Assembly: GCA_035548675.1 (NCBI GenBank)
Contig: DASZSJ010000016.1
Span: 796-64,795 of the forward strand
DNA length: 64,000 nt
Direction: 5' to 3'
DNA from: Solirubrobacterales bacterium
GTDB taxonomy: Bacteria; Actinomycetota; Thermoleophilia; Solirubrobacterales; 70-9
Shown one piece after another: positions 4,545-59,047 of this stretch. Numbering within the stretch: position 1 is the stretch's first letter; each line of letters opens with the position of its first letter. The position numbers were made by a program, and so were the translations under genes. The notes below the pieces were generated by a model that saw nothing but the letters and a program-made list of their open reading frames with translations, did no database searches and was not told where the DNA came from.

Positions 4545-7388
<2,844 letters not shown>

Positions 7389-7398
7389 CCCCACGGCC

Positions 7399-8133
7399 GT
7401 GACGACCGTTCGCCTCGACATCGAATACGAAGGCAGCGGCTTCCGCGGCTGGGCGAAGCAGCCCTGGCTGCGCACCGTGCAGGGCGAGCTGGAGGCGGCG
7501 CTGACCACCGTGCTGCGCGAGCCCGTGGAGCTGACGGTCGCCGGCCGCACCGACGCCGGCGTCCACGCCTGGGGACAGGTGGCGAGCTTCGACACCGGGG
7601 CCGAGGTGCCCGGCGACCTGGCGCGTCGGCTCAACGGCGTCGGGCCCGACGACGTCGCCGTCCGCGGGGCGGCGGTCGTCGCCGACGGCTTCAACGCCCG
7701 CCACGACGCCACCTCGCGCAGCTACTGCTACCGCGTCCTCGCCCGCCCGGCGCCCAGCCCCTTCGAGCGCGGCCGCGCCCTCTGGTGGCCGCACCGCCTC
7801 GATCGCGCCGCGCTCGAGGCCTGCGCCGAGGCGCTGGTGGGAACGCATGACTTCACCGCCTTCACCCCCACCCAGACCGACCACGTGCGCTTCGAGCGCG
7901 ACGTCCTCACCGCCGTGTGGACCGAGGAAGGCGACGTCCTCGCCTTCCGCATCACCGCCGACGCATTCATGCGCAACATGGTCCGCATCCTGCTCGGCAC
8001 CCAGCTCGAGGTCGCCGGCGGCCGCCGAACGCTGGAGAGCTTTCGCAAGCTGCTGCGGGGAGCGCCTCGAGCCGATGCGGGCGACACCGCCCCTCCTCAC
8101 GGCCTGTACCTGGAGTCCGTCTCCTACTACTGA
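7399..8133 (+). CDS. truA: tRNA pseudouridine(38-40) synthase
   Basis: Motifs RLDIEYEGSGFRGW and GRTDAGVHA (catalytic Asp motif). Confidence 0.9.
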   Translation: MTTVRLDIEYEGSGFRGWAKQPWLRTVQGELEAALTTVLREPVELTVAGRTDAGVHAWGQVASFDTGAEVPGDLARRLNGVGPDDVAVRGAAVVADGFNARHDATSRSYCYRVLARPAPSPFERGRALWWPHRLDRAALEACAEALVGTHDFTAFTPTQTDHVRFERDVLTAVWTEEGDVLAFRITADAFMRNMVRILLGTQLEVAGGRRTLESFRKLLRGAPRADAGDTAPPHGLYLESVSYY

Positions 8134-8243
8134 GCCGCACTCTGGGCGATCCCGCGGTGTCGATTGTTCGATTGACCCACATATACGGTGGCAAAGTGAA
8201 CACTCGACACCGGGCACCGCGCGGGCGGCCACTTGGAGGCGGG
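8134..8243 (-). repeat. family A structured repeat, copy 2 (minus orientation)
   Basis: The reverse complement of the core, tcgattgacccacatatacggtggcaaa, lies at 8168-8195. Flanks align with copies at 1089, 16402 and 37704. Confidence 0.7.
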
Positions 8244-16401: not shown

Positions 16402-16530
16402 GCCCCCCGCCCGCGTGGTGCTCGATGCCGAGTGTTCGATTTGCCACCGTATATGGGGGTCAATCGAACACTCAGCGCCGCGGGCTCGCCCAAAGTGCGG
16501 CTCAGGTCCCTTGCTCACGGGAATTCCGTG
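16402..16530 (+). repeat. family A structured repeat, copy 3 (inside the adk-map intercistronic gap)
   Basis: Core tttgccaccgtatatgggggtcaatcga at 16440-16467, flanked by the complementary stems gagtgttcga and tcgaacactc. Confidence 0.7.
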
Positions 16531-17266: not shown

Positions 17267-17390
17267 GCTGCGAACGGCCGTGAAAACCAAGCAGATCGTG
17301 GGACGCAGGGAGGCTGGTGAGGGGAGCGCACTGTTCTGTGCGTGACCCGATCCAGCCGACCGAGGACCGCGATATGCGCCGGTTTGCAGC
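17267..17390 (-). repeat. family C intercistronic structured repeat, copy 1 (secY-adk gap; most divergent copy)
   Basis: In mRNA sense it reads ggcgcatatcgcggtcctcgg, then a hairpin, then ccctgcgtcccacgatctgcttgg. The closing stem is gctgcgaac / gtttgcagc. Confidence 0.6.
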
Positions 17391-17404
17391 GGCCGCGACG
17401 AAGG

Positions 17405-24559: not shown

Positions 24560-25329
24560 CAGCGACCGCCTCCACGCGGGCCGCCGCGGCCGCGATCGCC
24601 ACCGCGGCCGCCGCCACGACCGCCGCGATCTCCGGGTGGACGACCGCCGCGCTGGCCGCCCTGCACCGGCGCGCTGTCCTCCTCGGCGAGCTGGTCGCGG
24701 AAGCCCTCGGGCATCACCTCGCCCTTGTTGATCCAGCACTTGACGCCGATCCGGCCGGTCGTAGTGCGCGCCTCGTAGAAGCCGTAGTCGATGTTGGCGC
24801 GCAGGGTGTGGAGCGGCACGCGGCCGTCCGAGTAACCCTCGGTGCGCGCCATCTCGGCGCCGCCGAGGCGGCCGGAGACCTGGACCTTCACGCCTTTGGC
24901 GCCAGAGCGCATCGCCGAGGTGAGCGCGCGTTTCATCGCGCGGCGGAAGGCGACGCGGTTCTGCAGCTGCTCGGCGATCGACTGGGCGACCAGTTTGGCG
25001 TCGAGCTCGGGGCGCTTGACCTCGCGGATGTTCACCTTCACCGGTTTGCCGGTCAGCTTGTGCAGGTCTTTGCGCAGCGCGTCGACTTCGGAGCCCGACT
25101 TGCCGATCACGATGCCGGGGCGGGCCGTGTGGATGTCGACCGCGATCTCGCCGTGACGCTCGATCGTGATGTTCGAGAGACCGGCGTGCGCGAGCTTGTT
25201 CTCGATGTGCTCGCGGATCCTCAGGTCCTCGTTGAGCACGTCGGAGAAGTCTTTCTCCTCGAACCAGTTGGACTTCCAGTCCTGGATGTAGCCGACGCGG
25301 AAGCCGCCGGGGTGGATCTTCTGTCCCAT
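24559..25329 (-). CDS. rpsC: 30S ribosomal protein S3 with an Arg/Gly-rich C-terminal tail
   Basis: N-terminus [14 protein letters not shown]... and tail [33 protein letters not shown]. Confidence 0.95.
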
Positions 25330-25330
25330 T

Positions 25331-25495
25331 AGATGCCCGCCTTCCTGGCCGAGTGCGCCTGGGGGCGCGGCTGGTCGAGCAGATCAAGGACGCAGGGTGC
25401 AGCCTTTGCTGGAGGCAAAGGCAAACCCGAGGACGCAGAGATGCGATGCGCCAGACGCGGCATCCAGGTGTGCTCGGTCGGGGAGGCGGGCATCT
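25331..25495 (-). repeat. family C intercistronic structured repeat, copy 2; fills the whole rplV-rpsC gap
   Basis: 165 nt. The closing stem is agatgcccgcct / aggcgggcatct. In mRNA sense it carries two TGCGTCCT motifs around the hairpin gcctttgc-ctcca-gcaaaggc. Confidence 0.75.
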
Positions 25496-28526: not shown

Positions 28527-28847
28527 CTACAGTCGGATCTCGATGTCGACGCCGGCGGGCAGCGAGTCGAGGCGCTGCAGCGAGTCGACGGTTTTCGGCG
28601 AGGGCTGGAGGATGTCGATCAGGCGCTTGTGGGTGCGCATCTCGAAGTGCTCGCGCGAGTCCTTGTCCTTGAAGGGGGAGCGGATCACGCAGTAGACGTT
28701 CTTCTCGGTCGGCAACGGCACCGGGCCGGAGACGCTGGCGCCGGTCCGCTCCGCGGTCTCGACGATCTCGCGGGCAGCCCGGTCTATGGCGTCGTGGTCG
28801 TACGCCTTCAACCGGATCCGGATTTTCTGTGCTGCTATCGCTGCCAC
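28527..28847 (-). CDS. rpsJ: 30S ribosomal protein S10
   Basis: The GTG at 28847 gives [18 protein letters not shown].... A longer start at 28889 is less consistent with usual S10 length. Confidence 0.9.
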
Positions 28848-28972
28848 TTTTCGAATTCTCTCGTCTTCTCCGCGCGCCTTACCGCGCATAAAGGGCGGGG
28901 CCCCTTTTAGGTGGGGCGCCGCCCCGGTCGTATGTCCTTTTGCAGTTGTCTCGCTGCCCGCGGGCAGCGAAA

Positions 28973-28994
28973 GGGCGGACCCGAAGGCCCGCCC
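28973..28994 (-). terminator. hairpin just downstream of tuf
   Basis: On the minus strand it reads GGGCGGGCC-TTCG-GGTCCGCCC, followed by TTTCG. It begins 13 nt after the tuf stop. Confidence 0.45.
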
Positions 28995-29006
28995 AGGAGT
29001 GAATTG

Positions 29007-30194: not shown

Positions 30195-30339
30195 CTCTCT
30201 CCGTTTCTACCTTTCGAAGTTGGGGTTCTGTCTGGCTTGCTTGTTTAAGTCTTGGGGGCGCTGCGCGGCAGCTCGATTTACGCTGCCTGCGGGCGAACCC
30301 GGGAAATATAGCTAGAACGACGCTGCGGTCCGGTCTCGC

Positions 30340-32451
<2,112 letters not shown>

Positions 32452-32607
32452 GGTTCCTAAGGTAAGGGTTTGGTTGTGAAACGGGGACGAAACAAACGCG
32501 AGCGATCTGGCAAGGGCCGGGATCGGCGCATGAAAAAGGCCCTCGCGGGCCCGGCGAAACGAACTCCGAAAAAACGTAAGTCGAAAAAGCTGCCTGAGCG
32601 ACGCGCG

Positions 32608-33480
32608 ATGATAGCAGCGGCGCGGCGTCGCATCGGCGCGGTTCTCGCCGCCGCCGCGAAGCGGACCCGGCAGCTCGATCGGGCGCTGGCGACGCGGATC
32701 GAGAAGGTGCGTCCCGTCCTGGTGCGAGCGATGCGCAGGGGGCGGCTGGGGGCGGTGCGGGCCTGGCGGGCGGCGGCCAAGCGCCTGCGGCCGGCCGCGG
32801 TCCTGCTGCTGCGGATCTTCTCGCGCGGCGAACGCCTGCTGCTGCGGGCTGGGGGCGCCTCGACGCGGGCGGCGACGCGGACCAGCGGCTGGCTGACGCC
32901 GGCGCGGGCGATCGCGGTGACCGTCCTCGGCGCCTCGGCCTGCCTGGCCGTCTCCCAGTTCGTCACCTACAGCAGCGTCGAGATCGGACAGCCGGGCTAC
33001 GCCGGGCTGACGGCGGCGGCGCCGCCGACCGTCGGCGCCGAGGCCGCGGGCCAGGCCCACTCCTATTTGTTGCTGCCGCTGGCCTTGCTGGCGGCGATCG
33101 CGGCCCTGGCGGCGTTGCGCACCGAACGGCGCGCCATCGGCCGTGTCATCGCCCTGATCGGCCTCCTCAGCCTTGCCGTGATCCTGCTCGTCGACCTGCC
33201 GGCGGGGCAGGACGCCGGCGCCCAGGCGGCGCGCTTCTCGGGCGCCGAGGCGGTGCTCAAAGGTGGCTTCTACGCCGAGCTCGCGGCGGCGGCGGGGCTG
33301 CTCTTCGGCGGACTGCTCTACTATGCGCGGCCGTGCCGAATACCAATCAACTTGTCAGGAAGGGCCGCAAGCGCCCGAAGAAGAAGACGGCGACGCCGGG
33401 ACTCAAGTCCTCGCAAGGCCGCAAGAAGGCGGTCGCGGCCCCGCAGCGCCGCGGCGTCTGCACCCGCGTCGCGACCGTAA
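32608..33480 (+). CDS. hypothetical membrane protein with 4 predicted TM segments; its 3' end runs 148 nt into rpsL in another frame
   Basis: ORF 32470..33480 has a high-GC3 coding signature and four hydrophobic segments. The start is uncertain (32470, 32530 or 32608). There is no in-frame stop before 33480. Confidence 0.45.
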
Positions 33481-33728
33481 CGCCGAAGAAGCCGAACTCG
33501 GCCCTGCGCAAGATCGCCCGTGTGCGCCTGACCAACGGGATGGAGGTCACCACCTACATCCCGGGCGAGGGTCACAACCTGCAGGAGCACTCCGTGGTCC
33601 TGGTCAGGGGTGGTCGCGTCAAGGACCTGCCGGGCGTCCGCTACAAGGTCGTGCGCGGGACGCTCGACGCGGCCGGCGTCTCCGACCGCAAGCAAGCCCG
33701 TTCGCGCTACGGCGTCAAGGCTTCCTAG
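33333..33728 (+). CDS. rpsL: 30S ribosomal protein S12
   Basis: [13 protein letters not shown]...[24 protein letters not shown] start. Confidence 0.95.
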
Positions 33729-33729
33729 T

Positions 33730-33894
33730 AGATGTCCTCGCCCGCGACCCCGCACACCTGGATGACGCACCTGGCGCGGCGCAGCTCTGCGTCTTCGGGC
33801 TTGCCTTTGCAACCAGCAAAGGCTGCACCCTGCGTCCTTGATCTGCTTGGCCAGTCGCGCCCCCAGATGCACGCGGCCACGAACGAGGACATCT
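33730..33894 (+). repeat. family C intercistronic structured repeat, copy 3; fills the whole rpsL-rpsG gap
   Basis: 165 nt and collinear with the reverse complement of 25331-25495. The closing stem is agatgtcctcg / cgaggacatct. The central roughly 100 nt are nearly identical between the two copies. Confidence 0.75.
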
Positions 33895-33895
33895 A

Positions 33896-34366
33896 ATGCC
33901 GCGACGTTCCGCCGCACAGATCCGCCCGGTCGAGCCCGACGCGCGCTTCCGCAACCGGCTCGTCCAGCAGCTGATCAACAAGGTGATGAGCGACGGCAAG
34001 AAGCAGCTTGCCGAGCGGATCGTCTACGACGCGCTGGCCCTGGTTGGCGAGCGCTCCGGCGAGGACGCGATCGAGACGCTGGAGGCGGCGATCAAACAGC
34101 TGACCCCGGTGCTCGAGGTCCGCTCCCGCCGGGTTGGCGGCGCCACCTACCAGGTGCCGGTCGAGGTGCCCGCGCGCCGCGCCCGCACCCTGGCCGTTCG
34201 CTGGCTCGTCGACTACGCCCGCGCCCGCCGCGAGTACTCGATGGCGGAGCGCCTCGCCGGTGAGATCCTCGACGCGACCCAGCAGCAGGGCGCTGCCTGG
34301 AAGCGCAAGGACGACATCTACCGGATGGCGCAGGCGAACAAGGCGTTCGCGCACTATCGCTGGTAG
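33896..34366 (+). CDS. rpsG: 30S ribosomal protein S7
   Basis: N-terminus MPRRSAAQIRPVEPDARFRN...; 156 aa. Confidence 0.95.
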   Translation: MPRRSAAQIRPVEPDARFRNRLVQQLINKVMSDGKKQLAERIVYDALALVGERSGEDAIETLEAAIKQLTPVLEVRSRRVGGATYQVPVEVPARRARTLAVRWLVDYARARREYSMAERLAGEILDATQQQGAAWKRKDDIYRMAQANKAFAHYRW

Positions 34367-34379: not shown

Positions 34380-34883
34380 ATGAGCAGGCCGATCCTCGCC
34401 GTCGACATAGACGGCGTCATTTCTCTTTTCGGGTCCGAGCAGGAGCCGGATCGGACGCACACCCAGTTCCAGCTCGTGGATGGGGTGCCGCATCTGCTCT
34501 CGCTGCCGGCGGGGGATCGGCTGCGGCGCCTGAGCGAGCACTTCGAGCTGACCTGGGCGAGCGGCTGGGAGGACAAAGCCAACTTCTACCTGCCGACGAT
34601 CCTCGGCCTGCCCGAGCTTCCCCACGTCAGCTTCGACGTCGCCGCGCGGGCGGGCGGCGCGCACTGGAAGTTGGGACCGCTGGAGGAGTTCGCCGGCGGA
34701 CGGCCACTGGCCTGGATCGACGACAACTTCGACGAGAGCTGCTTCGAGTGGGCGCAGCGGCGCGAGCAACCGACACTGCTGGTCCCCACCGAGACCCACC
34801 TCGGCCTCGAGGAGGCCCACGTAGCCGCCCTCGAAGCCTGGGTCCAAGAGGTCCACACCCCCGCCGACGGGCCTCAAACGTGA
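34380..34883 (+). CDS. HAD-superfamily-like hydrolase (hypothetical)
   Basis: Internal ATG (MSRPILAVDIDGVISLFG...). It has a DxDG motif-I-like signature. Family assignment is tentative. Confidence 0.5.
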   Translation: MSRPILAVDIDGVISLFGSEQEPDRTHTQFQLVDGVPHLLSLPAGDRLRRLSEHFELTWASGWEDKANFYLPTILGLPELPHVSFDVAARAGGAHWKLGPLEEFAGGRPLAWIDDNFDESCFEWAQRREQPTLLVPTETHLGLEEAHVAALEAWVQEVHTPADGPQT

Positions 34884-34916
34884 CATATCGACACGCTTTA
34901 GGCCCGTCGGCGGTGG
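34861..34916 (+). repeat. family D hairpin repeat, copy 1
   Basis: ccgccgacgggcctcaaacgtgacatatcgacacgctttaggcccgtcggcggtgg matches the reverse complement of 46948-47007 at 51 of 56 positions. Confidence 0.7.
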
Positions 34917-34929
34917 GTACACTGACCGG

Positions 34930-35262
34930 GTGGAGGGGTTCTGGCCCATCTTCTTCCTGCTCGTCGTGCTGAAGATCCCGGTCTTCGGCGCGCTTTGGCT
35001 CGTCTGGTGGGCAAGCCGCGCGCCCGAGTCCGAGGGCGCCGCGGAGGACTCCGATGGCGGCTTCAAACGCCGGCAGCCGCAGCCGCGCCTGCCGCGCGGC
35101 CCGCGGCGCGGCCCCCACGGCGGTGGCGCGGTGCTGCCGTTGCCCAACTGCCCGCCGGGTGGGCGCACCCGCGTGGTCAAACCCGCTGCGCAGCCCGCCT
35201 TCTCTCGCGCCGGATCTCACGCAGATAGGGCTGGAAGTCCACCTGGATCGTGTGACGCTTAG
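34930..35262 (+). CDS. possible small membrane protein
   Basis: GTG start and an N-terminal TM segment (FWPIFFLLVVLKIPVFGALWLVWW). The 3' end overlaps the convergent FMO gene by 86 nt, so the call is weak. Confidence 0.3.
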   Translation: MEGFWPIFFLLVVLKIPVFGALWLVWWASRAPESEGAAEDSDGGFKRRQPQPRLPRGPRRGPHGGGAVLPLPNCPPGGRTRVVKPAAQPAFSRAGSHADRAGSPPGSCDA

Positions 35263-36512: not shown

Positions 36513-36572
36513 CTTCCGGTGCGCTTTTGCCCCGATATGCGGGGAAAAAGCGCACCGGAGCGGGATGGCAGG
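36513..36572 (+). repeat. family B hairpin repeat, copy 1
   Basis: cttccggtgcgcttttgccccgatatgcggggaaaaagcgcaccggagcgggatggcagg is about 80% identical to 37361-37420. Confidence 0.7.
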
Positions 36573-36669: not shown

Positions 36670-37344
36670 ATGACCAGCAAGAGCCACAAGACCCGCTCGT
36701 TCCGTCCCTCCCCCGCCCTCGTGATCGCTTGCGTCGCCCTGTTCGCCGCCCTCACCGGCAGCGCCATCGCCGCCGGTGTCGGCAAGAACACGGTCCGCTC
36801 GCCCCAGATCGTTAACGGCACGATCCGCACCGTGGACCTGCGCGACAACGCGGTCGCCACCGGCAAGATCGCCCCCAACGCGGTCGCTGCGGGAAAGATC
36901 GCTCCGGACGCGGTGGATACGACGGAGATCGTCGAAAACGGCGTCGAGTCATCCGACGTCGCGCCGGACAGCCTCACGGCGGGTGACCTCGCCCCGGCCT
37001 CGGTCGCCTCCTCGGAGGTCGCCGACCAGTCGCTGAGCGCCGACGACCTCGGCCCCAACTCGGTCGGCTCGAGCGAGCTGCAGGCCGGCTCCGTCCGCGC
37101 CAACGACCTCGGCCCGATCGTCGCCGTCTCGAACAGCACCACGATCAACACCGGTGCCAACGCCAGCGTCAGCGTCAACTGCCCGGCGGGCACGGTCGCG
37201 ATCAGCGGTGGCAACACCGCCGGCGACTACCGGGTCGCCCTCACCGGCGCCCAGCGCAGCGGCAACGGCTGGATCGCCCACGCCCACAACTACGCCCCCA
37301 GCAACACCAGCCTCACCGTCTACGCCTACTGCCTCTCCGCCTGA
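36670..37344 (+). CDS. secreted protein with about 11 tandem decapeptide repeats and a Cys-containing C-terminal domain
   Basis: SD aaaggag lies 8 nt upstream. It has a signal/TM segment (ALVIACVALFAALTGSAIA). Repeats such as DNAVATGKIA/PNAVAAGKIA/PDAVDTTEIV... span about 36784-37113. Confidence 0.7.
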   Translation: MTSKSHKTRSFRPSPALVIACVALFAALTGSAIAAGVGKNTVRSPQIVNGTIRTVDLRDNAVATGKIAPNAVAAGKIAPDAVDTTEIVENGVESSDVAPDSLTAGDLAPASVASSEVADQSLSADDLGPNSVGSSELQAGSVRANDLGPIVAVSNSTTINTGANASVSVNCPAGTVAISGGNTAGDYRVALTGAQRSGNGWIAHAHNYAPSNTSLTVYAYCLSA

Positions 37345-37360: not shown

Positions 37361-37420
37361 CTTCCGGTGCGCTTTATCCCTCAATGGCGGGGCTAAGGCG
37401 CACCGGAACGGGTTGGCAGC
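37361..37420 (+). repeat. family B hairpin repeat, copy 2
   Basis: cttccggtgcgctttatccctcaatggcggggctaaggcgcaccggaacgggttggcagc. A partial third copy (cttccggtgc) lies at 37521-37530. Confidence 0.7.
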
Positions 37421-37515: not shown

Positions 37516-37703
37516 TTGGCGCTTCCGGTGCAAGCGTGCCGCACGTCCCGGTAGCGGGCCAGCTTGACACTCCCGCAAGGGAGATCGACCAGCAGCTTCG
37601 CGATCGTGTTCTTGGCTGCGCCGCTCAGAGCAAGATGCTGCTGCGACCCAGGCGATCGATTCCACGGCGCCAGCCGAGGAATCGCTACCCCTTCCCCCCC
37701 TCA

Positions 37704-37911
37704 GTGGGTCGCCCACGCGCTGCCCTGCGATCGATTTGCCACCGTATAGGTGGGTCAATCGATCGCAGGGCAGCGCGGGCTCCTCCAAGGTGCGGCTCAG
37801 GCGCCACAGGGCTCGCAAGCTCGGTGCCCTTTGCTCGTGGGGTTCTGTTGTGCTCGTGGGGTTCTGTCGAATCGACTGGCTTAGGGCGACTCAAGCTGAG
37901 CCAGTGCCCAC
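37704..37911 (+). repeat. family A structured repeat, copy 4 (longest, with an internal 19-nt tandem duplication)
   Basis: Core tttgccaccgtataggtgggtcaatcga at 37735-37762, enclosed by a perfect 18-bp stem (gcgctgccctgcgatcga / tcgatcgcagggcagcgc). Bases 37832-37850 are duplicated at 37851-37869. Confidence 0.7.
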
Positions 37912-46926: not shown

Positions 46927-46947
46927 CTCGTCACCTGCACCGGGTTT

Positions 46948-47007
46948 CCACTGTCGACGGGCCTAAAACGTGTCGCTATGTCACGTTTGCGGCCCGTCGG
47001 CGGCTGC
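46948..47007 (-). promoter_or_regulatory. family D hairpin, copy 2, in the rplJ 5' leader (candidate L10-leader structure)
   Basis: In mRNA sense it reads cagccgccgacgggccgcaaacgtgacatagcgacacgttttaggcccgtcgacagtgg and ends 21 nt before the rplJ ATG. Confidence 0.5.
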
Positions 47008-48232: not shown

Positions 48233-48248
48233 CGGGTCGGGAACCATA

Positions 48249-48347
48249 GCTGGCGCGAGAGCCAAGCGATCCAAGGACGCAGGGAGCGTGGCGTGCTTTG
48301 CACGCGAGCGACCGAGGACGCCGGAGCGCGCCGGCTATCGCGCCAGC
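48249..48347 (-). repeat. family C intercistronic structured repeat, copy 4 (nusG-rplK gap)
   Basis: The closing stem is gctggcgcga / tcgcgccagc. In mRNA sense it reads cggcgtcctcgg, then the hairpin cgcgtgc-aaa-gcacgc, then ccctgcgtccttggatcgcttgg. Confidence 0.7.
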
Positions 48348-48871
48348 TAAATCTTCTTCACCTGGTCGTAGCCGACCTCGACCGGTGTCTCGCGGCCGAA
48401 GATCGAGACCAGGACCTTGAGTTTGGCCGCATCCTCGTTGATCTCGGCGATCTCGCCGGAGAAGTCGGAGAGCGGGCCGGAGACGACCTTGACCGACTCG
48501 CCGATCGAGAACTGGGCCTGGGTGCGGGGCCGCTCGGCGGTCTCGCGGTGCAGCAGGCGGTCGACCTCGGGTTTGGAGAGCGGCACCGGCTTGTTGCGCG
48601 AGCCGACGAAGCCGGTCACGCCGGGGGTGTTCTTGACCAGGCCCCAGGCGTCGTCGGTCATCTCCATGTTGACCAGGACGTAGCCCGGCATGGTGCGCTT
48701 CTCCTTGGGTTCTTTCTGGCCGTCCTTGCCAAGCTCCATCACTTGCTCGGTGGGGACGACGACCTGGCGCACGTTGCGGTTCTGGCTCATCGTCTGAACC
48801 CGGTGCTCGAGATTGTGCTTGACCTTGTTCTCGTGACCCGAGTAGGTGTTGATCACGTACCAGCGGTACAT
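48347..48871 (-). CDS. nusG: transcription termination/antitermination factor NusG
   Basis: Internal ATG (MYRWYVINTYSGHENKV...) of ORF 48347..49030, with a KOW region. Confidence 0.93.
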   Translation of the reverse strand: MYRWYVINTYSGHENKVKHNLEHRVQTMSQNRNVRQVVVPTEQVMELGKDGQKEPKEKRTMPGYVLVNMEMTDDAWGLVKNTPGVTGFVGSRNKPVPLSKPEVDRLLHRETAERPRTQAQFSIGESVKVVSGPLSDFSGEIAEINEDAAKLKVLVSIFGRETPVEVGYDQVKKI

Positions 48872-51747: not shown

Positions 51748-52146
51748 CTACTGGACGGCACGCCAGAAGACCGTCGCCACAACTCCCTCGAATTGGCCTT
51801 TGTCGGTGCCGGCGATGACCTCGTTGACTTCCGGCCTCACGCTGATCGCCAACGCCGGTGCTATCGGTACGACAAAGCGACGAGCCTGACCAACCAAACG
51901 AGCATCGAGTTCGACGTTTCCGATCGTCCCCGAGAATCCCCCGTCCGTGTCCTCGACAAATGCCCACGTCTTGTCGTCGACCGAGTCTGCAAGCCACCAT
52001 CTGAGCGTAGTCCCGGTATCTGGCTCCCACTGCTCGACTCTCAAGGCAACGATGACGGTAACGGCCGATGAGAAGTCACCTGGGATCCGAACGAGTTTTC
52101 GCTCGGCGACAGTCCCGAGGTCGACTATCTCCGTGTGGGTCGTCAT
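51748..52146 (-). CDS. hypothetical protein (132 aa)
   Basis: ORF whose ATG overlaps the stop of the upstream 67-aa ORF by 4 nt. I recognise no family. Confidence 0.45.
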   Translation of the reverse strand: MTTHTEIVDLGTVAERKLVRIPGDFSSAVTVIVALRVEQWEPDTGTTLRWWLADSVDDKTWAFVEDTDGGFSGTIGNVELDARLVGQARRFVVPIAPALAISVRPEVNEVIAGTDKGQFEGVVATVFWRAVQ

Positions 52147-52346
52147 GCCCGGCCCCCTCCCGATTCGACGGCCCTGAGAGCAGATCCATAGAGCACGGAG
52201 GCTGCCTGCATTGCGAGTCGTAGGCGACGACGTCGATCAACCTCGGCAGCACCCTGCTCCTCTTCATGGAGGCGCAGTATGTGGCCCTGCATTTCTTGGT
52301 GCGTCGGCAGATCCCCCTGGATCGGGTAAATGTATGCCCTCCTCAT
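52143..52346 (-). CDS. hypothetical protein (67 aa)
   Basis: First gene of a two-gene overlapping pair. I recognise no family. Confidence 0.35.
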   Translation of the reverse strand: MRRAYIYPIQGDLPTHQEMQGHILRLHEEEQGAAEVDRRRRLRLAMQAASVLYGSALRAVESGGGRA

Positions 52347-52611
52347 CCAGGCCGCTTGCCTTCAATCTGAGCTTCGTCGAGACCTCTCCGCGCGTCCTCG
52401 TGCTCCTGTGAGGCATCCGCTCAGCATCAAAGGCAGCCATCGAGGTGTCGATAAGCCCGTCAATGCTTCCCGTTCGCCTGGTCTGTTGCTTTGCCGTGCT
52501 TGTCTTCCATGGATCGCTTGGGGCGCGGACATCGGGATCGTCTCCGGCAAATGACCTGACCGGCGGGGCCGATTGGACTCGGTCCGGGCGATCGGGACCA
52601 TGTAGTCAGCG

Positions 52612-53074
52612 GTCGTCATCAACGAGAAATCGAGAGTTCCGGCGATTGACGAGTCCGCTTTGGAGCGGCTGAGCGTTGCGCTCGACCAGGAGGGGGTAGT
52701 CGCCACCACGCTGATTGGCTCGCAGGCGCGCGGGACACCCGGTCCGCTTTCGGATGTCGACATCGCTGTTTGGCACGACGAGGGACTCGATCCTGCCGAT
52801 CGTTTGCGTCTTCAGCTCAACCTGGCATTGGCCGCCTGGCGGGCTCTTGGCACGGACGAGATCGACATCGTCATGCTCAATAAGGCTTCGCCGCTACTGC
52901 GCTAGTAGAGGGGCGACTAGAGACGCACGGCTGCTGGTGGAGCGTGATCCGGTTGCTCGGGTTCGGCTCGACGCGCGGGCGCTTCTCAACCACCTCGACA
53001 CCAAGCCGCTGAGAGCGGAGATGTCACGGGGCCTTCCCAAGCGGATACAGGAGGGTCGCTTTGGTCGACCCTGA
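52612..53074 (+). pseudogene. MntA-like nucleotidyltransferase antitoxin, decayed copy
   Basis: It aligns with the intact paralog 53781..54251 (VVINEKSRVP.ID..AL.RLS.ALDQ...GSQARGT.GPLSDVDIAVWHD). The start codon is GCG instead of ATG, with an in-frame stop just upstream. There is a stop at 52903 and a frameshift around 52885-52900. Confidence 0.8.
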
Positions 53075-53240
53075 GAGCGTTGACGCCTGGCTCGAGCACC
53101 TTTCGAGTTGCTCGCCGAGTCGGAGCGCCTACCTGGAGGTGGATGACGACAAGGTTTGGGACGCCGTCGGCACCTCGACGACCTGCGCGCATTCGCCGCG
53201 ATCGTCCAGCGATTCGAGGGCCGACCACCGCGCCGGGCCG
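53061..53240 (+). pseudogene. HepT-like (DUF86/HEPN) toxin remnant
   Basis: LVDPESVDAWLEHL... and, in another frame, HLDDLRAFAAIVQRFEG match the N- and C-termini of HepT 53366..53836. The middle of the gene, including the RX4H motif, is missing. Confidence 0.6.
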
Positions 53241-53263
53241 TAGGTCGCATCCGCGACCTACGG

Positions 53264-53362
53264 CTGAAAGGCTGACGAGCCGCCGCTTCAGGAGTGGGAT
53301 TGCGGCGGTTATGCGACCGGGATGCGACTCGTCCGGCGCGGTCGTTTCGACCGAAGGTCAAG
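53264..53362 (+). repeat. family R repeat, copy 1 (long form)
   Basis: ctgaaaggctgacgag...ggagtgggattgcggcggttATGCGACcgggATGCGACtcgtccggcgcggtcgtttcGACCGAAGGTCAAG. It ends 3 nt before the HepT stop codon. Confidence 0.75.
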
Positions 53363-53365
53363 GGC

Positions 53366-53836
53366 TTAGTCGCCGGTTGAATCGCCTTCGGAATGGGCCA
53401 GTTGTTCGACGGTGGACCCGAACTCGCGTAGATCGTCGAGGTGCGCCAGTGAGGCAAACACCGCGCGATCGTCGATCTCTAGATACAGGTGCACTATGAG
53501 ATTGCGCTGTTTGGCCGCCTCCGCTAGTCGCTGTGCAAGTTGAGCTGGAATGACGCCGCCCTGCCCGAGGGTCGTGAAAACGTCGGCATAGTCGGATGGA
53601 GGCTGCGCCGATTGCTCGCTGACGAGCTGGGTGCCGAGGTCGATGCAGATCTGGACCGCCACCTGTAGCCAGCGCTCGGCTGCGGCACGCTGCTGCTCGT
53701 CGGCGAGATAGGCGTCCTCCCCGGCCCGACGCACCTCGTCGAGACGCTCGATCAGCCCCTCGAGCCGCTGTATCCGGGCTTCAACCCGGTTCGCGTCGAC
53801 CAAAGCGCCCTTCCCGTATCCGGCGACGCACACCAC
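53366..53836 (-). CDS. hepT: HepT-like HEPN (DUF86) RNase toxin
   Basis: RX4H motif RNLIVH and DUF86-like helices (RWLQVAVQICIDLGTQL). The start is uncertain: GTG at 53836 or TTG at 53806. It overlaps mntA. Confidence 0.75.
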   Translation of the reverse strand: MVCVAGYGKGALVDANRVEARIQRLEGLIERLDEVRRAGEDAYLADEQQRAAAERWLQVAVQICIDLGTQLVSEQSAQPPSDYADVFTTLGQGGVIPAQLAQRLAEAAKQRNLIVHLYLEIDDRAVFASLAHLDDLREFGSTVEQLAHSEGDSTGD

Positions 53837-54251
53837 GACCCAACTCTTCGCGCAGCGGCACCGTGTCGAGGTAATCCAAGATCGCTCGCGTCTCCAACCG
53901 GACCCGTTCGTCGTGATCCCGCTCGACCAGGCGCTTGGCGTCGCGGATGGCGCGATGGCACATCAGCGGTGGCGCGTGATTGAGCAAGACAATGTCGATC
54001 TCGTCGGTGCCCAGTGCCCGCCCGGCCTCACACGCGATCTTCAATTGAAGATCGAGGCGACCACGGGGATCGAGGGCGGGGTCATGCCAGACGGCGATGT
54101 CAACGTCCGACAGTGGGCCGACGGTCCCACGGGCCTGCGATCCGATCAGCATCGCGGCAACGACGTTGTCTTGGTCCAGAGCGTGACTGAGCCGCTTCAA
54201 AGCAGCATCGTCGATCGGCGGAACTCGCGATTTCTCGTTGATGACGACCAT
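53781..54251 (-). CDS. mntA: MntA-like nucleotidyltransferase antitoxin
   Basis: Minimal nucleotidyltransferase motif GSQARG...SDVDIAV. It lies upstream of hepT and overlaps it. Confidence 0.8.
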   Translation of the reverse strand: MVVINEKSRVPPIDDAALKRLSHALDQDNVVAAMLIGSQARGTVGPLSDVDIAVWHDPALDPRGRLDLQLKIACEAGRALGTDEIDIVLLNHAPPLMCHRAIRDAKRLVERDHDERVRLETRAILDYLDTVPLREELGRGVRRRIREGRFGRREPG

Positions 54252-54312
54252 TGCCTACATCGTCCCCGATCACCCGGACCGAGTCCAATCTGATCGGACG
54301 TACGATCCGCCG

Positions 54313-54456
54313 ATGAACGTGCGGAGCATGCGCCCCGATGAAGTCGACGCCGCGGTCAGCGTGTGGCGCGAAGCCAACAACGCCCGTGGTGCGCCGCACG
54401 GGCCTGAGCGCACAGCTCGCATCCGCGTGAAACTCTCAGCCCCGGACGCACTGCCC
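54313..54456 (+). pseudogene. GNAT acetyltransferase N-terminal fragment (48 codons)
   Basis: MNVRSMRPDEVDAAVSVWREANNARGAPHGPERTARIRVKLSAPDALP matches the first 48 aa of the GNAT gene at 56706. About 15 nt of upstream sequence are shared too. Homology stops abruptly. Confidence 0.8.
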
Positions 54457-54522
54457 GGAACGCCTCGGCGCGCCTCGGCACCACGTTTCAAGAGGAACCG
54501 CCGCAAACGGCTCTGCACCGGG

Positions 54523-54590
54523 CTGAAGGTGGGCCGCTTGGGGAGTGGGGTTGCGAGGGTGATGCGACCGAAATGCGACCACCAGCAACT
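54523..54590 (+). repeat. family R repeat, copy 2 (short form)
   Basis: ctgaaggtgggccgcttggggagtggggttgcgagggtgATGCGACCgaaATGCGACCaccagcaact. The Fic stop codon follows at 54599. Confidence 0.75.
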
Positions 54591-54598
54591 GATTGGCG

Positions 54599-55777
54599 CT
54601 ACGACGAAATGATCTGCACCACCTCAGGCGCTACATAGAGGCGAGCATTTCGAGAAAGCCGCGCGTGCGCTGGTTCCAAAATATTCAGTGACACGAGGGT
54701 GTTGATCGCATTCTGGGCGCCCTGACCCGACAAGCCAAGGCGCTTGGCAACCCAGGGCCGATCGACGTAAGGACGACCAACTAGATCGGCGGCCAGTCGC
54801 TCGGCAGAGCCTCGCTTGTTCGCATCTTGCACTCGACGGCGCAACTGCTCCTGCAGGGCGACCAGGCCCTCGACTTTCTGCTGAGAGTCAAGGGCTGATG
54901 CAGCAACACCCTCAGCAAAGAAGCTGACCCACCGATCCCAGTCCCCATTGCAGCTGAGGCGCATGAGTTCCTCTTGATAGAGGTCGCGGCGTTTCTCAAA
55001 CCACGGAGAGACCACGAGGAGCGGCTCTCGGATGACCGCACCGCGCAGCAGCTGAACGATCACCAGTAGGCGGCCGAGCCTCCCGTTCCCGTCGGAGTAG
55101 GGATGGAGCGACTCAAACTGATAGTGACCAAGCGCCGCAAGGACGACTGTCGGCAGTTCAGGAGGCGAAGCGATCCATGCGAGCAACTCCTCGACGCCAC
55201 CGCGCAACTGGTCGCCCGGGGGCGGGGGCACGAATCGCGCCTCATCAAACCCGGCGCCACGAGCGCCGATGACAACGATTCGGTCGCGGAGCCCTCCGGC
55301 ATCGGATAGCTCGCCGGCGGTGTCGCGAACGAGTGTCTTCTGCAAATCACCCAACATGCCGATTGTGAGTGCGCGATCTTCAGGCCAAGAGAAGGCAAGC
55401 TCAGCCATCCGCTCAAAGTTGAGGACCTCAACCAGCTCAGCGGAGAGCTGCTGCCGATCGTCGCCCTCCGCCGCGAGAACGTCGGCGAATGGAGCGTATG
55501 TCCCCTCCAGCGCGCTCGTACTCTGCGCCTCACGGCGCAGGGTGGGTCGACGAAGGAGCGAGGGCTCGGGAATACGCCGTGCCGCGCCGTCGAGTCGAGC
55601 CAGCGCTGCGGTCGCCGAGTTAACGACGTTCCAGGTCTTCGTTGAGAGCACGATCTCTCGGGGCAACGGATCGGGCAGGAAAGCTTCGCCCTCGACCATC
55701 TCGTGAGTAACTGGATCCGGTCCAAGAATGGGAATTAGGCTGCCGATGGGGCTCTGCTCAAGAGTGGCCGTATCCAC
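54599..55777 (-). CDS. Fic/DOC family protein with an N-terminal inhibitory motif and a C-terminal wHTH-like region
   Basis: Fic motif HPYSDGNGRLGR and inhibitory-helix-like STSALEG. GTG start. Confidence 0.85.
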   Translation of the reverse strand: MDTATLEQSPIGSLIPILGPDPVTHEMVEGEAFLPDPLPREIVLSTKTWNVVNSATAALARLDGAARRIPEPSLLRRPTLRREAQSTSALEGTYAPFADVLAAEGDDRQQLSAELVEVLNFERMAELAFSWPEDRALTIGMLGDLQKTLVRDTAGELSDAGGLRDRIVVIGARGAGFDEARFVPPPPGDQLRGGVEELLAWIASPPELPTVVLAALGHYQFESLHPYSDGNGRLGRLLVIVQLLRGAVIREPLLVVSPWFEKRRDLYQEELMRLSCNGDWDRWVSFFAEGVAASALDSQQKVEGLVALQEQLRRRVQDANKRGSAERLAADLVGRPYVDRPWVAKRLGLSGQGAQNAINTLVSLNILEPAHARLSRNARLYVAPEVVQIISS

Positions 55778-55809
55778 AGACGCAAATATATCGCCTAAAA
55801 TTTGCGTCT
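55778..55809. promoter_or_regulatory. perfect 10-bp inverted repeat abutting the Fic start codon
   Basis: agacgcaaat, then a 12-nt AT-rich loop, then atttgcgtct. It begins 1 nt upstream of the GTG. It could be an operator, or the terminator of the upstream nucleotidyltransferase gene. Confidence 0.45.
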
Positions 55810-55917
55810 AGCTATGGACAACGCAAGTTGTCTTGTGCCCACAGAAGAATTCCCTGGAAATGAGCCGGTAACGAGCGAGCGAGGGCCAGTAGATCGCCGG
55901 GTAGATCCGGCTTTCGC

Positions 55918-56259
55918 TCATCCGGCAAGGACGCGGCCCTGCGATAGGGCTGCGTGGACGAGGCCGCCGCGGACTTCCCGCCAACGATCGGCATAGTCGC
56001 GACTTACCACGACCACATCTGCCGGCATACGCAAATCGCGCAGGGTCCGGTGCAGTCGCACCGACTCCTCGGCCTCATTGGCGACCTCGGGCTCAACGAC
56101 AAGGAAATCGACATCGCTATGTGGGTGGGCCTCTCCGCGGGCATGGGAGCCAAAAAGAACCACCTGCGCATTGGGGGCAGCAGCAGCCAAGCGGCGTCCC
56201 GCCTCGGCAATCAGCGCATCGTCAATGGCTCTCATCGTCGGAATGGTAGTCGTCGCCAT
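55918..56259 (-). CDS. minimal nucleotidyltransferase (MNT-type), no cognate HEPN ORF evident
   Basis: GSHARGEAHPHSDVDFLVV. It is clearly paralogous (about 70% aa identity by eye) to 59654..60001. Confidence 0.75.
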   Translation of the reverse strand: MATTTIPTMRAIDDALIAEAGRRLAAAAPNAQVVLFGSHARGEAHPHSDVDFLVVEPEVANEAEESVRLHRTLRDLRMPADVVVVSRDYADRWREVRGGLVHAALSQGRVLAG

Positions 56260-56355
56260 GGATCGAGCCCGGCACCACTCTGGTTGTCATCCCGGAGCTC
56301 CGATGCCACTCGACCTCATTCCACAATGAGAGTTCTTGTCTGCGACGATTGACCC

Positions 56356-56706
56356 GTGCTGAAGCTCGTATCGCTCAAGAACACATGCACCGCGTGTCCA
56401 TCCCAGTGGGAGGGAACCCTTGAGGACGGCCGGGCAATCTATGCGCGCTATCGCCACGGCGAACTGAGCGTGGGCGTCGGCAATGACATCAACGAGGCGG
56501 TCCGAAACGGAATGTCCGATCGAGCTCTTTATGCGAACGACACAGGCAACGGACTCGATGGATTCATGGACTTCCAGGAACTGAAGGCCCAGATGCATGG
56601 GCTACTGGAGTTCCCTGCAGATCTAGACGAGCACGATCGTCGACCGAAACTGCGATCCCGAAATGCCGAGAAAGCTGCTCGCGCTGCCCGACGTACGATT
56701 CGTTGA
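56356..56706 (+). CDS. hypothetical protein (116 aa)
   Basis: GTG start. The stop overlaps the GNAT start as TGATG. It contains CTACPSQWEG. I recognise no family. Confidence 0.5.
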   Translation: MLKLVSLKNTCTACPSQWEGTLEDGRAIYARYRHGELSVGVGNDINEAVRNGMSDRALYANDTGNGLDGFMDFQELKAQMHGLLEFPADLDEHDRRPKLRSRNAEKAARAARRTIR

Positions 56707-57326
56707 TGAACGTGCGCGCCATGCACCCCGGTGAGATCGACGCTGCGGTCAGCGTGTGGCGCGAGGCCAACGTCGCCCGTGGCGCTCCGCATGGGCCTGC
56801 GCGTACCGAGCGAATCCGCGCGAAACTCTCAGCCCCAGACGCACTGCCGTGCGTCGCGTTGCGCCCAGACATCGTAGGCATGGCGCTCGCCGAGCCCGGG
56901 AGGCTCGATGACGGCGCAGGAGACCTCGATCCAACACTCCTGCACATCTCGATGGTTTTCGTTCGTCCCGCTGCACAGCGCACAGGAGTCGGGCTCCCTC
57001 TTGTCATGTACGTCCTCGACGTCGCACGGTCGAGCGGTTACAGACGAGTGCGAGTTTGGACGACGCAGGAGAACCGCGCGGCTCGCAAGCTCTACGAGAG
57101 AGCTGGGATGACCCCCACTGGCAAAACCACTCCCCTCCGGTCGAGCGTGGCTCTCCAGTACGAATGCCCGGTAGAAGAATCACGGCGCCAAGACCTCGGT
57201 GTCGATGACGTTGCTGACCTTTGGGCCGAGATCACGCCGGCATCTGAAGACGAGAGTCTCGAGCTCGCCGGGGACGAGCTCCGTGCGATGCGCAAGGAGA
57301 AACACACCAAGGAGGGTCAAAGCTAA
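56706..57326 (+). CDS. GNAT family N-acetyltransferase with an acidic C-terminal extension
   Basis: Acetyl-CoA-binding motif A-like VFVRPAAQRTGVGLPL and ENRAARKLYERAGM. Confidence 0.8.
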   Translation: MNVRAMHPGEIDAAVSVWREANVARGAPHGPARTERIRAKLSAPDALPCVALRPDIVGMALAEPGRLDDGAGDLDPTLLHISMVFVRPAAQRTGVGLPLVMYVLDVARSSGYRRVRVWTTQENRAARKLYERAGMTPTGKTTPLRSSVALQYECPVEESRRQDLGVDDVADLWAEITPASEDESLELAGDELRAMRKEKHTKEGQS

Positions 57327-57328
57327 TC

Positions 57329-57547
57329 GTGCGAAGGCCTCTGCGACGCGTCTTCCTTCTACTTGGCACCTATGTGGCTCTCTTGGCGGCCGTCGTCTTC
57401 GCGGGCTTCCTGGGAAGCGCAATTGGTATTTGGGCCGCGATCCTCTGGGGCGTCGGAGTCATCAGCGGGCTCGTCATCTATGGACGCCGACGCCTGAATC
57501 GATCCCGGAGTCAAATCGCTCTAGAAGGCCAGCCTCCATCGGATTGA
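57329..57547 (+). CDS. small membrane protein (72 aa, 2 TM segments)
   Basis: GTG start 2 nt after the GNAT stop. It has hydrophobic segments. Its stop lies inside family R copy 3. Confidence 0.5.
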   Translation: MRRPLRRVFLLLGTYVALLAAVVFAGFLGSAIGIWAAILWGVGVISGLVIYGRRRLNRSRSQIALEGQPPSD

Positions 57548-57617
57548 AAGGACGGAGGTCTTCCGTACGGAGAGTGGCTTTGCCGAGGTGATGCGACCGA
57601 AATGCGACCGGCAACTC
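57543..57617 (+). repeat. family R repeat, copy 3 (short form)
   Basis: attgaaaggacggaggtcttccgtacggagagtggctttgccgaggtgATGCGACCgaaATGCGACCggcaact. The VapC stop codon is at 57616. Confidence 0.75.
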
Positions 57618-57993
57618 AGGGCACGCGGATGTCGACGAGATCTTCAATCAACTTGAAGTCGTCGGCGTTCAGGGTCAGCAGGGGCACGCCGTGAACATTC
57701 GCGGTCGCGGCAATCGCCAGGTCGAAGGCGCGGCGCCGGGGCTGGCCGCCACGCTGCGCCACGGCTGCATAAAGGCGACCGCATTCGCGCGCCGCCGCCG
57801 CCTCGAAGGGCAGAGGGTCGAAGCTCTCCTCGATTGTGCCGAGCCGGCGCAGGCGTACAGCCCGGACCTCCTCATCCGCCGCGACCAAGACACCGAAGTG
57901 AAGCTCGGTGAGCGAGACGACGCTGATCGCGACATCCTCATCGGGATCCTCGCTGCCGCGTATGAGGACCGACGTGTCAAGCAGGGCCGGCAC
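57616..57993 (-). CDS. vapC: PIN-domain toxin VapC
   Basis: MPALLDTSVLI..., with conserved acidic residues and downstream-of-antitoxin gene order. Confidence 0.85.
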   Translation of the reverse strand: MPALLDTSVLIRGSEDPDEDVAISVVSLTELHFGVLVAADEEVRAVRLRRLGTIEESFDPLPFEAAAARECGRLYAAVAQRGGQPRRRAFDLAIAATANVHGVPLLTLNADDFKLIEDLVDIRVP

Positions 57994-58000
57994 CGAGCCG

Positions 58001-58246
58001 TTACAGCGCCCAGGGGTCGCGAAGTTCGCCGCCTACCTTCTCGAGGTCGGCCTCGAGGGTCGGGTCGACGGGCGCCCTCCAGAGCTCAGCGAGCTGTGAG
58101 CTCGGCACCCAGCGCCGGCCCTTGGCAGGCCCCAGGGAAGCGACTGGCCGTCCAGAAACAGTGATCGTCAGCTCCTCGCCCGCTTCGGCGCGACGCAGCA
58201 CCTCGCCAACGTTGTTGCGCAGTTCCTTCTGGGGAATCGTCGCCAC
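58001..58246 (-). CDS. Phd/YefM-type antitoxin
   Basis: MATIPQKELRNNVGEVLRRAEAGEELTITVSGRPVA. It lies immediately upstream of vapC. Confidence 0.8.
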   Translation of the reverse strand: MATIPQKELRNNVGEVLRRAEAGEELTITVSGRPVASLGPAKGRRWVPSSQLAELWRAPVDPTLEADLEKVGGELRDPWAL

Positions 58247-58306
58247 AGTCCCACGGTAGCAGTTCTGCTACCTGCGAGGGTCTTCGGTTCTGCTGGAAGC
58301 CGTTGA

Positions 58307-59040: not shown

Positions 59041-59047
59041 TCCAACG

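Follow-up and report, generated by a model that had tools for sequence, protein, structure and literature searches.

Family C, a probable family of small hairpin-forming mobile repeats at gene junctions in Solirubrobacterales

Why should the same imperfect palindrome sit in four gaps between genes of translation-machinery operons, each time in the sense of the operon mRNA? The question is raised by a 64,000-nt stretch of DNA ("the window") from a Solirubrobacterales bacterium (GenBank assembly GCA_035548675.1, contig DASZSJ010000016.1, positions 796 to 64,795 of the forward strand). A reading of this DNA made from the sequence alone, referred to below as the sequence-only reading, described a structured element, Family C, at the junctions rplV/rpsC (25331-25495, minus strand), rpsL/rpsG (33730-33894, plus strand), nusG/rplK (48249-48347, minus strand) and secY/adk (17267-17390, minus strand), and suggested a role at the RNA level. 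[quoted passage not shown] A literature search for repeats or MITEs of Solirubrobacterales, or for similar actinobacterial intercistronic palindromes, found nothing specific. Family C would thus add an undescribed member to the known class of palindromic mobile repeats that are small and non-autonomous.

Copies in the window and empty sites in relatives

All four copies were confirmed at these positions and on these strands, and the flanking genes were identified by NCBIfam. We number the copies 1 to 4 in the order given above. The window holds no others. The exact 10-mer CCCTGCGTCC occurs within it at the four copies only; an nhmmer profile made from 119 family members finds exactly the four (E 8e-10 to 1.5e-16); and a covariance model, run with filters off, gives them, from highest to lowest, 111, 50.7, 45.1 and 35.2 bits, with everything else at or below 19. 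Aligned, the copies share a single order of parts, much as had been proposed: an outer stem, GGCGCAT..TC.GCGTCCTCGG, an apical hairpin, CCCTGCGTCC..GATC.GCT.GG, and the outer stem again. The closing stems and apical hairpins quoted in the sequence-only reading are correct, and the two motifs that it called direct repeats correspond to two GCGTCCT direct repeats in the core. When folded, every copy forms a long imperfect hairpin, with z-scores against shuffled sequence of −5.4, −4.1, −4.8 and −2.5 for copies 1 to 4. The gap from the rplV stop codon to the rpsC start codon and that from the rpsL stop codon to the rpsG start codon are each filled exactly by a 165-nt copy. Two copies of this kind had been reported before, although as the second and third copies; they are the first two listed.

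Family C is mobile, as can be seen from presence/absence polymorphism at orthologous junctions. The comparison rests on 80 loci from metagenomes, each coding for an RpsC of 82-98% identity and fetched together with flanks of up to 10 kb. At rplV/rpsC, ~73 of 76 loci have a bare overlapping stop and start codon (…gacTGATGgga), and the element is present in L125, L126, L195 and the window. Filled sites read gacTGA/GATGCCC…GGGCATC/TGATGgga, with TAA…TAA in the window, such that the stop triplet is duplicated around the element. The rpsL/rpsG junction is empty (TAATG, TGATG and variants) in 16/16 relatives covering it; copy 2 of the window is therefore lineage-specific. The secY/adk junction is filled in four relatives (L126, L138, L171 and L172), holds a decayed copy in L167 and a remnant in L152, and is empty in at least 15 others, including L121, the closest relative by SecY. 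In L152, an apical-hairpin remnant is all that stays. The relatives carry 22-25 more insertions, at 11 or more ribosomal protein (r-protein) junctions, each of which is empty in most genomes and then typically reads TGATG or TAATG. Other filled junctions include rpsJ/rplC, rplD/rplW, rplW/rplB, rplB/rpsS, rpsC/rplP, rpsQ/rplN, rplN/rplX, rpsH/rplF, rplR/rpsE, adk/map and the position 3' of rpsG. Insertions fall on or beside stop codons (T(N)A), very often exactly in overlapping TGATG or TAATG within operons, and between convergent genes. Two loci show more complex arrangements. At rplV/rpsC of L158 (~890-1190), similar arms enclose a different core, beside what is left of the 3' part (aggcgggcatctgatggga) of an older Family C copy, and in L100 (~6190-6420), two partial 5' halves lie upstream of a full copy.

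The empty sites bear on the role first proposed, in which Family C would be a cis-acting RNA on the sense strand of the operon mRNA, kept for the host as a processing site, a stabiliser or a regulator-binding site. Such a role would fit the strong sense bias described below, the high conservation of the core across species, and a location at gene 3' ends like that of repetitive extragenic palindromic (REP) stabilisers. It would also fit four conserved G·U pairs in the predicted sense core, where G→A changes preserve pairing. However, the same junctions exist without the element, as a plain TGATG overlap, in most close relatives. Because most relatives do without it at every site examined, a host-beneficial sense-RNA role is unlikely. 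The sequence-only reading linked the element to no described r-protein leader, and this agrees with Rfam 15, which returned no matches at gathering thresholds for the whole window, r-protein leaders included; in E-value mode, searches around two copies gave noise only (11-15 bits, against thresholds of 50-168).

The wider distribution of Family C points the same way. We scanned the 3' core motif over one genome per species (GTDB representatives), which gave at least 120 loci. Among the matches listed, nearly all are metagenome-assembled genomes (MAGs) of Solirubrobacterales/Thermoleophilia, with a few bearing the label Methylomirabilia; three matches, which lie inside genes, are due to chance. 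Outside the scanned pattern, the core is almost identical among these matches. When flanking proteins are clustered, the matches listed fall into ~87 distinct gene neighborhoods, many of them between convergent genes. The supposed tie to translation-machinery operons does not survive this, and such arbitrary gene contexts also speak against a sense-RNA role. The window's own nusG/rplK site recurs among the matches listed in L066 (JBKPOV010000220.1) only, which is the same or a near-identical genome. Secondary matches indicate a density of ~1 copy per 30-65 kb, which puts the copy number of a genome at the order of 10^2. In all, there are ~150 family matches in 1.6 Mb of related DNA and four in the 64-kb window, the elements being 99-170 nt long and so below the ~300 bp that bounds MITEs. 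Because the fetched loci are genome fragments (pieces of 8-20 kb), copy numbers are provisional, as is the absence of a transposase discussed below. Copy counts do not equal independent events: obvious orthologs were collapsed, and relatedness remains.

Members of the family fall into size classes. Short forms span ~100-112 nt with 16-nt arms, the intermediate form, like the secY/adk copy, ~123 nt with a 48-nt apical hairpin, and long forms, like copies 1 and 2 of the window, ~158-167 nt with 45-nt arms. The arms divide into several sub-families and the apical hairpins into at least five types, and the two GCGTCCT direct motifs of the core lie 41-44 or 62 nt apart. Termini read GATG…CATC or CTNAG…CTNAG. 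They are always inverted repeats (82.5% of cells paired) and are diverse in sequence between copies, with loose consensuses such as CTNAGGCCGNCTGACC or GATG-N7-CCACGACC. We considered whether the arms are inverted copies of the target and rejected this, given that, for the insertion at rplR/rpsE of L172, the empty site lacks the arm sequences and that a loose family consensus is common to the arms. Family C copies also occur in MAGs labelled outside the Actinomycetota (L001, L004, L029 and L046, labelled Methylomirabilia, and L064, labelled Chloroflexota), which could reflect horizontal spread or mis-binned contigs. The Methylomirabilia-labelled copies have an apical hairpin type of their own.

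Orientation and strand asymmetry

The sense orientation of the four copies extends beyond the window. With each locus oriented by its element and orthologous contexts collapsed, tandem genes among the matches listed flank the element in sense in 33 contexts and in antisense in 6 (binomial p=1.4e-5); 23 contexts are convergent and 5 divergent. In ~84% of contexts among the matches listed, the element lies directly 3' of a co-oriented gene. Within r-protein (S10/spc/str) loci, the covariance model finds 25 copies, of which 23 are tandem-sense, one is antisense (L171, adk/map) and one lies in the divergent rpsL/fusA gap. By form, a hand count from the lists gives ~30:2 for long forms and ~22:6 for the near-symmetric short forms. 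The sense preference is strong, not absolute, with a bias of 85-95% along transcription. In the sequence-only reading, copies in both orientations and in arbitrary contexts would have marked an ordinary REP or MITE; arbitrary contexts and mobile insertion are indeed what we find, whereas orientation is biased rather than random.

Could the direction of replication set the orientation? On the genome fragments covered here, this is disfavored, because the adjacent, divergent rpsL-rpsG and fusA-tuf-S10 operons both carry sense copies. In the rpsL-rpsG operon, encoded on the opposite strand, two copies 3' of rpsG (L175 and L185) and the window's rpsL/rpsG copy are all in sense. Sense copies in both of two divergent neighboring operons suggest that orientation tracks transcription and not the replication fork. 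The GC skew of the window is uninformative on replication direction. The operon arrangement deserves separate mention: rpsL-rpsG (window 30340-34366; L121-L185) is divergent from fusA-tuf-S10, with a gap of ~880 bp between the fusA and rpsL starts, and this separate arrangement, in place of one str operon, is kept in 16/16 relatives covering the region.

The closing stems had been described as covarying, and they do so strongly. In an alignment of 68 short-form copies, 12 of the 13 pairs of the outer helix change on both sides. Compensated cells number 267, compared with 89±7 in column shuffles (0/500 attain the number found) and with 69-107 in slid controls, and the compensated changes are almost purely from one Watson-Crick pair to another. 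What did not hold is that the covariation belongs to an RNA helix in the sense strand. Non-Watson-Crick cells of the short-form outer helix are A·C or C·A in 46 cases and G·U or U·G in 24, an excess that runs counter to a sense-strand RNA. The core helices are nearly invariant across the short forms and so provide no evidence either way on pairing; for a sense-RNA role, this means that the core offers no support from covariation. The covariation of the arms looks like the signature of a DNA palindrome, not of a sense-RNA helix.

The long forms show the asymmetry more clearly. The arms of 25 long-form copies contain 872 Watson-Crick cells, 137 sense A·C, 20 sense G·U and 100 other mismatches. 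Conservation of the polarity sites (e.g., GCAC facing GTGC) extends to both long sub-families and to many species. In copy 1, the A·C mismatches between the arms on the sense strand are G·U pairs on the antisense strand, which can form a continuous 34-bp helix with ~10 wobbles. Predicted folding energies for sense and antisense strands are −83.3 and −116.5 kcal/mol for copy 1, −74.6 and −107.1 for copy 2, and −49.2 and −72.0 for the secY/adk copy. For the long-form class, the means are −86.8 and −107.4. The short nusG/rplK copy folds about equally on either strand (−57.9 and −57.5). When long forms are restricted more strictly, to 21 copies, the sense strand gives the more stable fold in none (0/21). 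The sense fold of long forms is weaker by ~20-30 kcal/mol because the wobbles sit on the antisense strand (137:20). An RNA-level role of the sense strand is contradicted by this, the sense RNA being the less stable fold. As these folds would have it, the mRNA carries the mismatched version of the helix, by design or by history.

The strand that folds almost perfectly is the template strand, and it might itself be the active molecule. A structure-specific recombinase or transposase could act on single-stranded DNA (ssDNA) folded into this hairpin, with orientation arising from strand-specific insertion or excision tied to transcription. Candidate enzymes would be of the HUH/Y1 type, as in IS200/IS605-RAYT, or tyrosine recombinases, as at integron attC or CTX attP sites, which would read the unpaired core while the arms need only pair. 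The arrangement of variable, complementary arms around a conserved polar center, the reverse of what transposases recognizing terminal inverted repeats would need, agrees with this idea, as does the 137:20 polarity of wobbles on one strand at conserved positions. Apical hairpins that vary in length recall the variable terminal structure of attC, and orientation tracks local transcription in two divergent neighboring operons. On the other hand, no candidate enzyme gene was found beside any copy in the 1.67 Mb of fetched loci, and the duplicated TGA or TAA at rplV/rpsC suggests a staggered cut, not HUH chemistry. In addition, G·T wobbles are only weakly stabilizing in DNA, and neither the conserved boxes of attC nor the GTAG/CGTC tags of REPs are in the expected place. 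We regard an ssDNA substrate as possible, at well below even odds.

Strand polarity might instead be a by-product of mutation. Quasi-palindromes are known to mutate through correction by template switching, and this process could keep the arms complementary while strand-biased transitions produce the A·C/G·U polarity, with no selection on the folded strand. The almost exclusive change from one Watson-Crick pair to another is what would be expected if one arm had been copied from the other. Nevertheless, quasi-palindrome correction would remove mismatches of the kind observed. Deamination of an exposed non-template strand would, by our reasoning, yield sense G·U, the opposite of the data. Moreover, the polarity sites are conserved in both long sub-families and in many species and are therefore inherited design, not local decay. 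We consider a purely mutational origin improbable.

A 34-bp helix with ~10 G·U pairs resembles RNA more than DNA, which raises the prospect of an antisense RNA gene on the strongly folding strand, acting as a cis-antisense regulator of operon junctions. We give this very little credence: the element is missing at each site in most relatives, antisense transcription within r-protein operons is implausible, and convergent and other contexts are unsuited to such a regulator.

Element ends and tolerance within operons

How might a mobile hairpin persist at the junctions of r-protein operons? The layout of the copies provides clues. Their ends were delimited by anchored arm extension, since the minimum-free-energy fold of the ±130-nt region ran too far into the flanks. 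Copy 1 is a long form of 165 nt on the minus strand (25331-25495), occupying the gap between the rplV stop and the rpsC start. Its 5' arm (25450-25494) consists of GATG, a variable 7-mer and CCCCGACCGAGCACACCTGGATG…, includes an ATG at 25493-25491, and pairs with 25332-25374. The first core motif (25427-25449), GCAT.GCATCTCTGCGTCCTCGG, contains the first GCGTCCT direct repeat and is near-invariant in the 68 short-form copies. The apical hairpin (25398-25426) is of type B, GCCTTTGC…GCAAAGGC, and is the module that differs among sub-families. The second core motif (25375-25397), CCCTGCGTCCTTGATCTGCTCGA, is conserved and holds the second GCGTCCT direct repeat. The 3' arm (25332-25374) ends in …GGAAGGCGGGCATC, a purine-rich sequence resembling a Shine-Dalgarno (SD) sequence, directly before the rpsC ATG. 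An open reading frame (ORF) of 54 codons ending in KAGI bridges the junction (25329-25493, minus strand): its ATG lies 1 nt past the rplV stop codon, and its TAA overlaps the rpsC ATG (TAATG).

Copy 2 (33730-33894, plus strand), the long form of 165 nt between the rpsL stop and the rpsG start, is 84% identical to copy 1. It likewise has a bridging ORF of 54 codons (33732-33896, plus strand; MSSPATPHTW…NEDI), with a TAA that overlaps the rpsG ATG. Copy 3 at nusG/rplK is a short form of ~103 nt (48247-48349, minus strand, including TAG…CTA arms); it has the covariance model score of 111 bits, and the first triplet of its 5' arm is the nusG stop codon TAG. Copy 4 at secY/adk is the intermediate form of ~123 nt (17274-17396, minus strand), with a 49-nt apical hairpin of type C.

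These ends are typical of long forms. The 5' end (GATG…, GCGATGA… or GCGGTGA…) places an ATG or GTG 1-5 nt past the upstream stop codon, and the 3' end (…GGAAGGAGGCATCGC or …CGAGGACATC) places SD-like purines 6-12 nt ahead of the downstream ATG. The frame of the terminal ATG is free of stop codons in 27/31 long forms, compared with 8/31 and 7/31 for the other two sense frames. At tight operon junctions with long forms, a bridging ORF of 53-54 codons is present in 16/17 cases. In 15/17, the first in-frame stop lies −3 to +6 nt from the end of the element, where it overlaps or abuts the next start codon (TAATG, TGATG or TAGATG). The bridging ORF is probably translated.

A mobile-element origin could account for these features together. 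Family C has a conserved polar core, with two direct GCGTCCT motifs and a swappable apical hairpin, set within inverted-repeat arms that vary yet remain complementary. The invariant polar core would be the recognition site of the mobilizing enzyme, while the arms need only pair; that the core is such a site is presumed from its conservation. One strand folds near-perfectly, with many G·U/G·T wobbles, and the other has A·C at those positions; in surviving copies within transcription units, the mRNA is almost always the weakly folding strand. Were the element flipped, the operon mRNA or the exposed non-template strand would contain a near-perfect helix of 34 bp. Such a copy might then be polar, whether by a block to re-initiation, by cleavage specific for double strands or by termination, or it might be excised. 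If flipped copies are harmful in this way, mainly sense copies would survive, and the orientation bias would presumably result from the harm done by, or the excision of, the strongly folding orientation. In the sense orientation, ribosomes ending translation of the upstream gene could re-initiate at the ATG of the element, melt the weakened hairpin and stop at the next start codon, so that coupling would be kept.

Several points weigh against this account. Selection against the strong hairpin is something that we infer. The bridging frame is about equally open when the element is flipped (26/31 compared with 27/31; 24 compared with 26 of 53); the open frame thus does not explain the orientation, and we rejected the bridging ORF as the cause of the bias. 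A clean target-site duplication is found only at rplV/rpsC (TGA/TGA, TAA/TAA), and elsewhere TA, TG or nothing fits; the duplication is blurred, likely because junction bases are selected to restore stop and start codons. In 1.67 Mb of fetched DNA, we found no autonomous partner or transposase, and neither split core halves nor arms enclosing an ORF. Classical MITEs conserve their terminal repeats, whereas Family C has variable arms and a conserved center. A near-identical core across many species could alternatively reflect a function that benefits the host. Finally, the gene calls in the fetched loci come from our own simple codon-usage caller, which recovers the known genes of the window.

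A more specific version, which we put forward tentatively and rate at well below even odds, combines hairpin-mediated mobility with adaptation to operons. In this version, Family C would be a novel type of mobile DNA structured as a hairpin: an enzyme would read the conserved, polar, partly unpaired core on the folded template strand and ask no more of the arms than complementarity, insertion or survival would be coupled to transcription, and the translation-transparent ends and the mismatched mRNA strand would have evolved for life in essential, coupled operons.

The reinterpretation matters beyond this locus. An apparent RNA motif of ribosomal operons becomes a mobile-element family in an abundant, poorly studied soil clade (Solirubrobacterales/Thermoleophilia). 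Even where the genes of essential r-protein operons meet most closely, Family C has inserted again and again and is tolerated. It therefore offers a natural setting in which to study how much RNA structure and spacing translational coupling can bear, and how selfish DNA adapts to operons. Since palindromic DNA repeats give strong compensatory signals, they can produce false positives in covariation-based searches for structured RNAs. Family C would also generate spurious 54-aa gene calls in MAG annotation.

The window contains further repeats. A second dispersed repeat of ~87-148 nt, with the core …GATTTGCCACCGTATAGGTGGGTCAATCGATCG…, occurs at 1092-1239, 16420-16506 and 37703-37850 and, inverted, at 8130-8228. 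Its copies are 76-87% identical, and one lies in the adk/map gap, next to the secY/adk copy of Family C. Two inverted 46-nt hairpin repeats (TTCCGGTGCGCTTTTGCCCCGATATGCGGGGAAAAAGCGCACCGGA; 36514-36559 and 37363-37408) bracket an ORF at 36670-37344, and a similar small hairpin is nested within a long Family C copy in L024. A 72-nt inverted pair (34861-34932 and 46932-47003), with 83% complementarity and a separation of 12 kb, may represent a third family of intergenic repeats. The region at ~52000-64000 may be a foreign island: its GC content is 0.59-0.63, compared with 0.66-0.71 elsewhere, and a codon model trained on the window yields very few confident genes there. Its own repeats are 300-nt pairs (52594-52902/53958-54266 and 55918-56217/59654-59953) as well as four copies of 54 nt that end in GATGCGACCGAAATGCGACC. 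A search of the window for tRNA genes found none. Two non-coding blocks are conserved in the relatives L121-L199: ggctatatttcccaggttcgcccgcagg after fusA (fusA/tuf; window ~30195-30339), and a GC hairpin, gacatacgaccggggcggcgcccc…ggggccccgccc, before rpsJ (tuf/rpsJ; window ~28812-29006). Neither has an Rfam match in the window. These blocks are possibly a promoter, a leader or an element like the S10 leader.

Comparison with known repeat systems

Integron attC sites share several traits with Family C. They lie 3' of ORFs in one orientation, are imperfect palindromes of 57-141 nt in which structure is conserved more than sequence, have a variable apical part, and are active as one folded strand. 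They are defined by R''/L''…L'/R' boxes (RYYYAAC…GTTRRRY) at their ends and by a cassette array next to intI. Membership was ruled out: the R''/R' boxes are absent from Family C, which sits in core housekeeping operons where no cassette array or integrase context was seen. Rickettsia palindromic elements (RPEs, e.g., RPE-4 and RPE-6) provide a second parallel, being translatable mobile palindromes that are tolerated in translated regions. The difference is that RPEs lie in-frame within protein-coding genes, whereas Family C brings its own mini-ORF between genes.

Among MITEs, the closest comparisons are ERIC/IRU of enterobacteria and Correia/NEMIS of Neisseria (reviewed in PMC2229807, PMC3184786 and PMC10969869). 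Like these, Family C consists of long imperfect palindromes of ~100-170 bp with many intergenic, transcribed copies, filled and empty orthologous sites, TA-containing targets and hairpins in mRNA. Unlike these, Family C has variable arms and a conserved center with two direct repeats, and it shows a strong orientation bias. Its ends give a start, a stop and an SD-like sequence, its wobbles are strand-asymmetric, and its host clade is the Thermoleophilia, with no related insertion sequence known. It is because the ends vary and the center is conserved that Family C departs from the classical MITE. The effect of such MITEs on mRNA through their hairpins can reportedly depend on orientation, as De Gregorio et al. 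are said to have described in 2005.

REPs, which RAYT transposases mobilize, are stem-loops of 20-40 bp that bear an unpaired tag, GTAG or CGTC, at one end, and a REPIN is made of two inverted REPs (PMC3733652), a dimer that folds into a larger hairpin. Both are extragenic hairpins found mostly downstream of genes, between unidirectional and convergent ORFs, at hundreds per genome (PMC3733652, PMC3116915). Family C is similar to REPINs as a long hairpin downstream of genes and differs from REPs and REPINs in being a single long hairpin with a polar, non-palindromic core. Membership among CGTC-tagged REPs was rejected, as the CGTC of Family C lies inside the central direct repeats without the 8-9 bp stem that should follow. 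No RAYT gene was seen in the fetched 8-20 kb locus pieces.

Mycobacterial interspersed repetitive units (MIRUs) are also actinobacterial. In the summary of Supply et al. 1997 given in PMC3184786, they are described as intercistronic within operons and co-transcribed, with filled and empty sites and short direct repeats, and as containing ORFs that overlap, at either end, a stop or start codon of the flanking genes. MIRUs are units of 40-100 bp, often in tandem arrays (variable number tandem repeats), and not long single hairpins, whereas Family C copies are single and palindromic and are frequent between convergent genes as well; a resemblance in sequence would not be expected. Tandem arrays were not seen among the copies, and on this ground MIRU membership was ruled out. 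The likeness lies elsewhere: Family C is intercistronic, co-oriented with its operon, and has an internal ORF that overlaps the flanking stop and start codons. By analogy with MIRUs, the start codon, open frame and stop codon provided by its ends look like a family-level adaptation to life between the genes of an operon.

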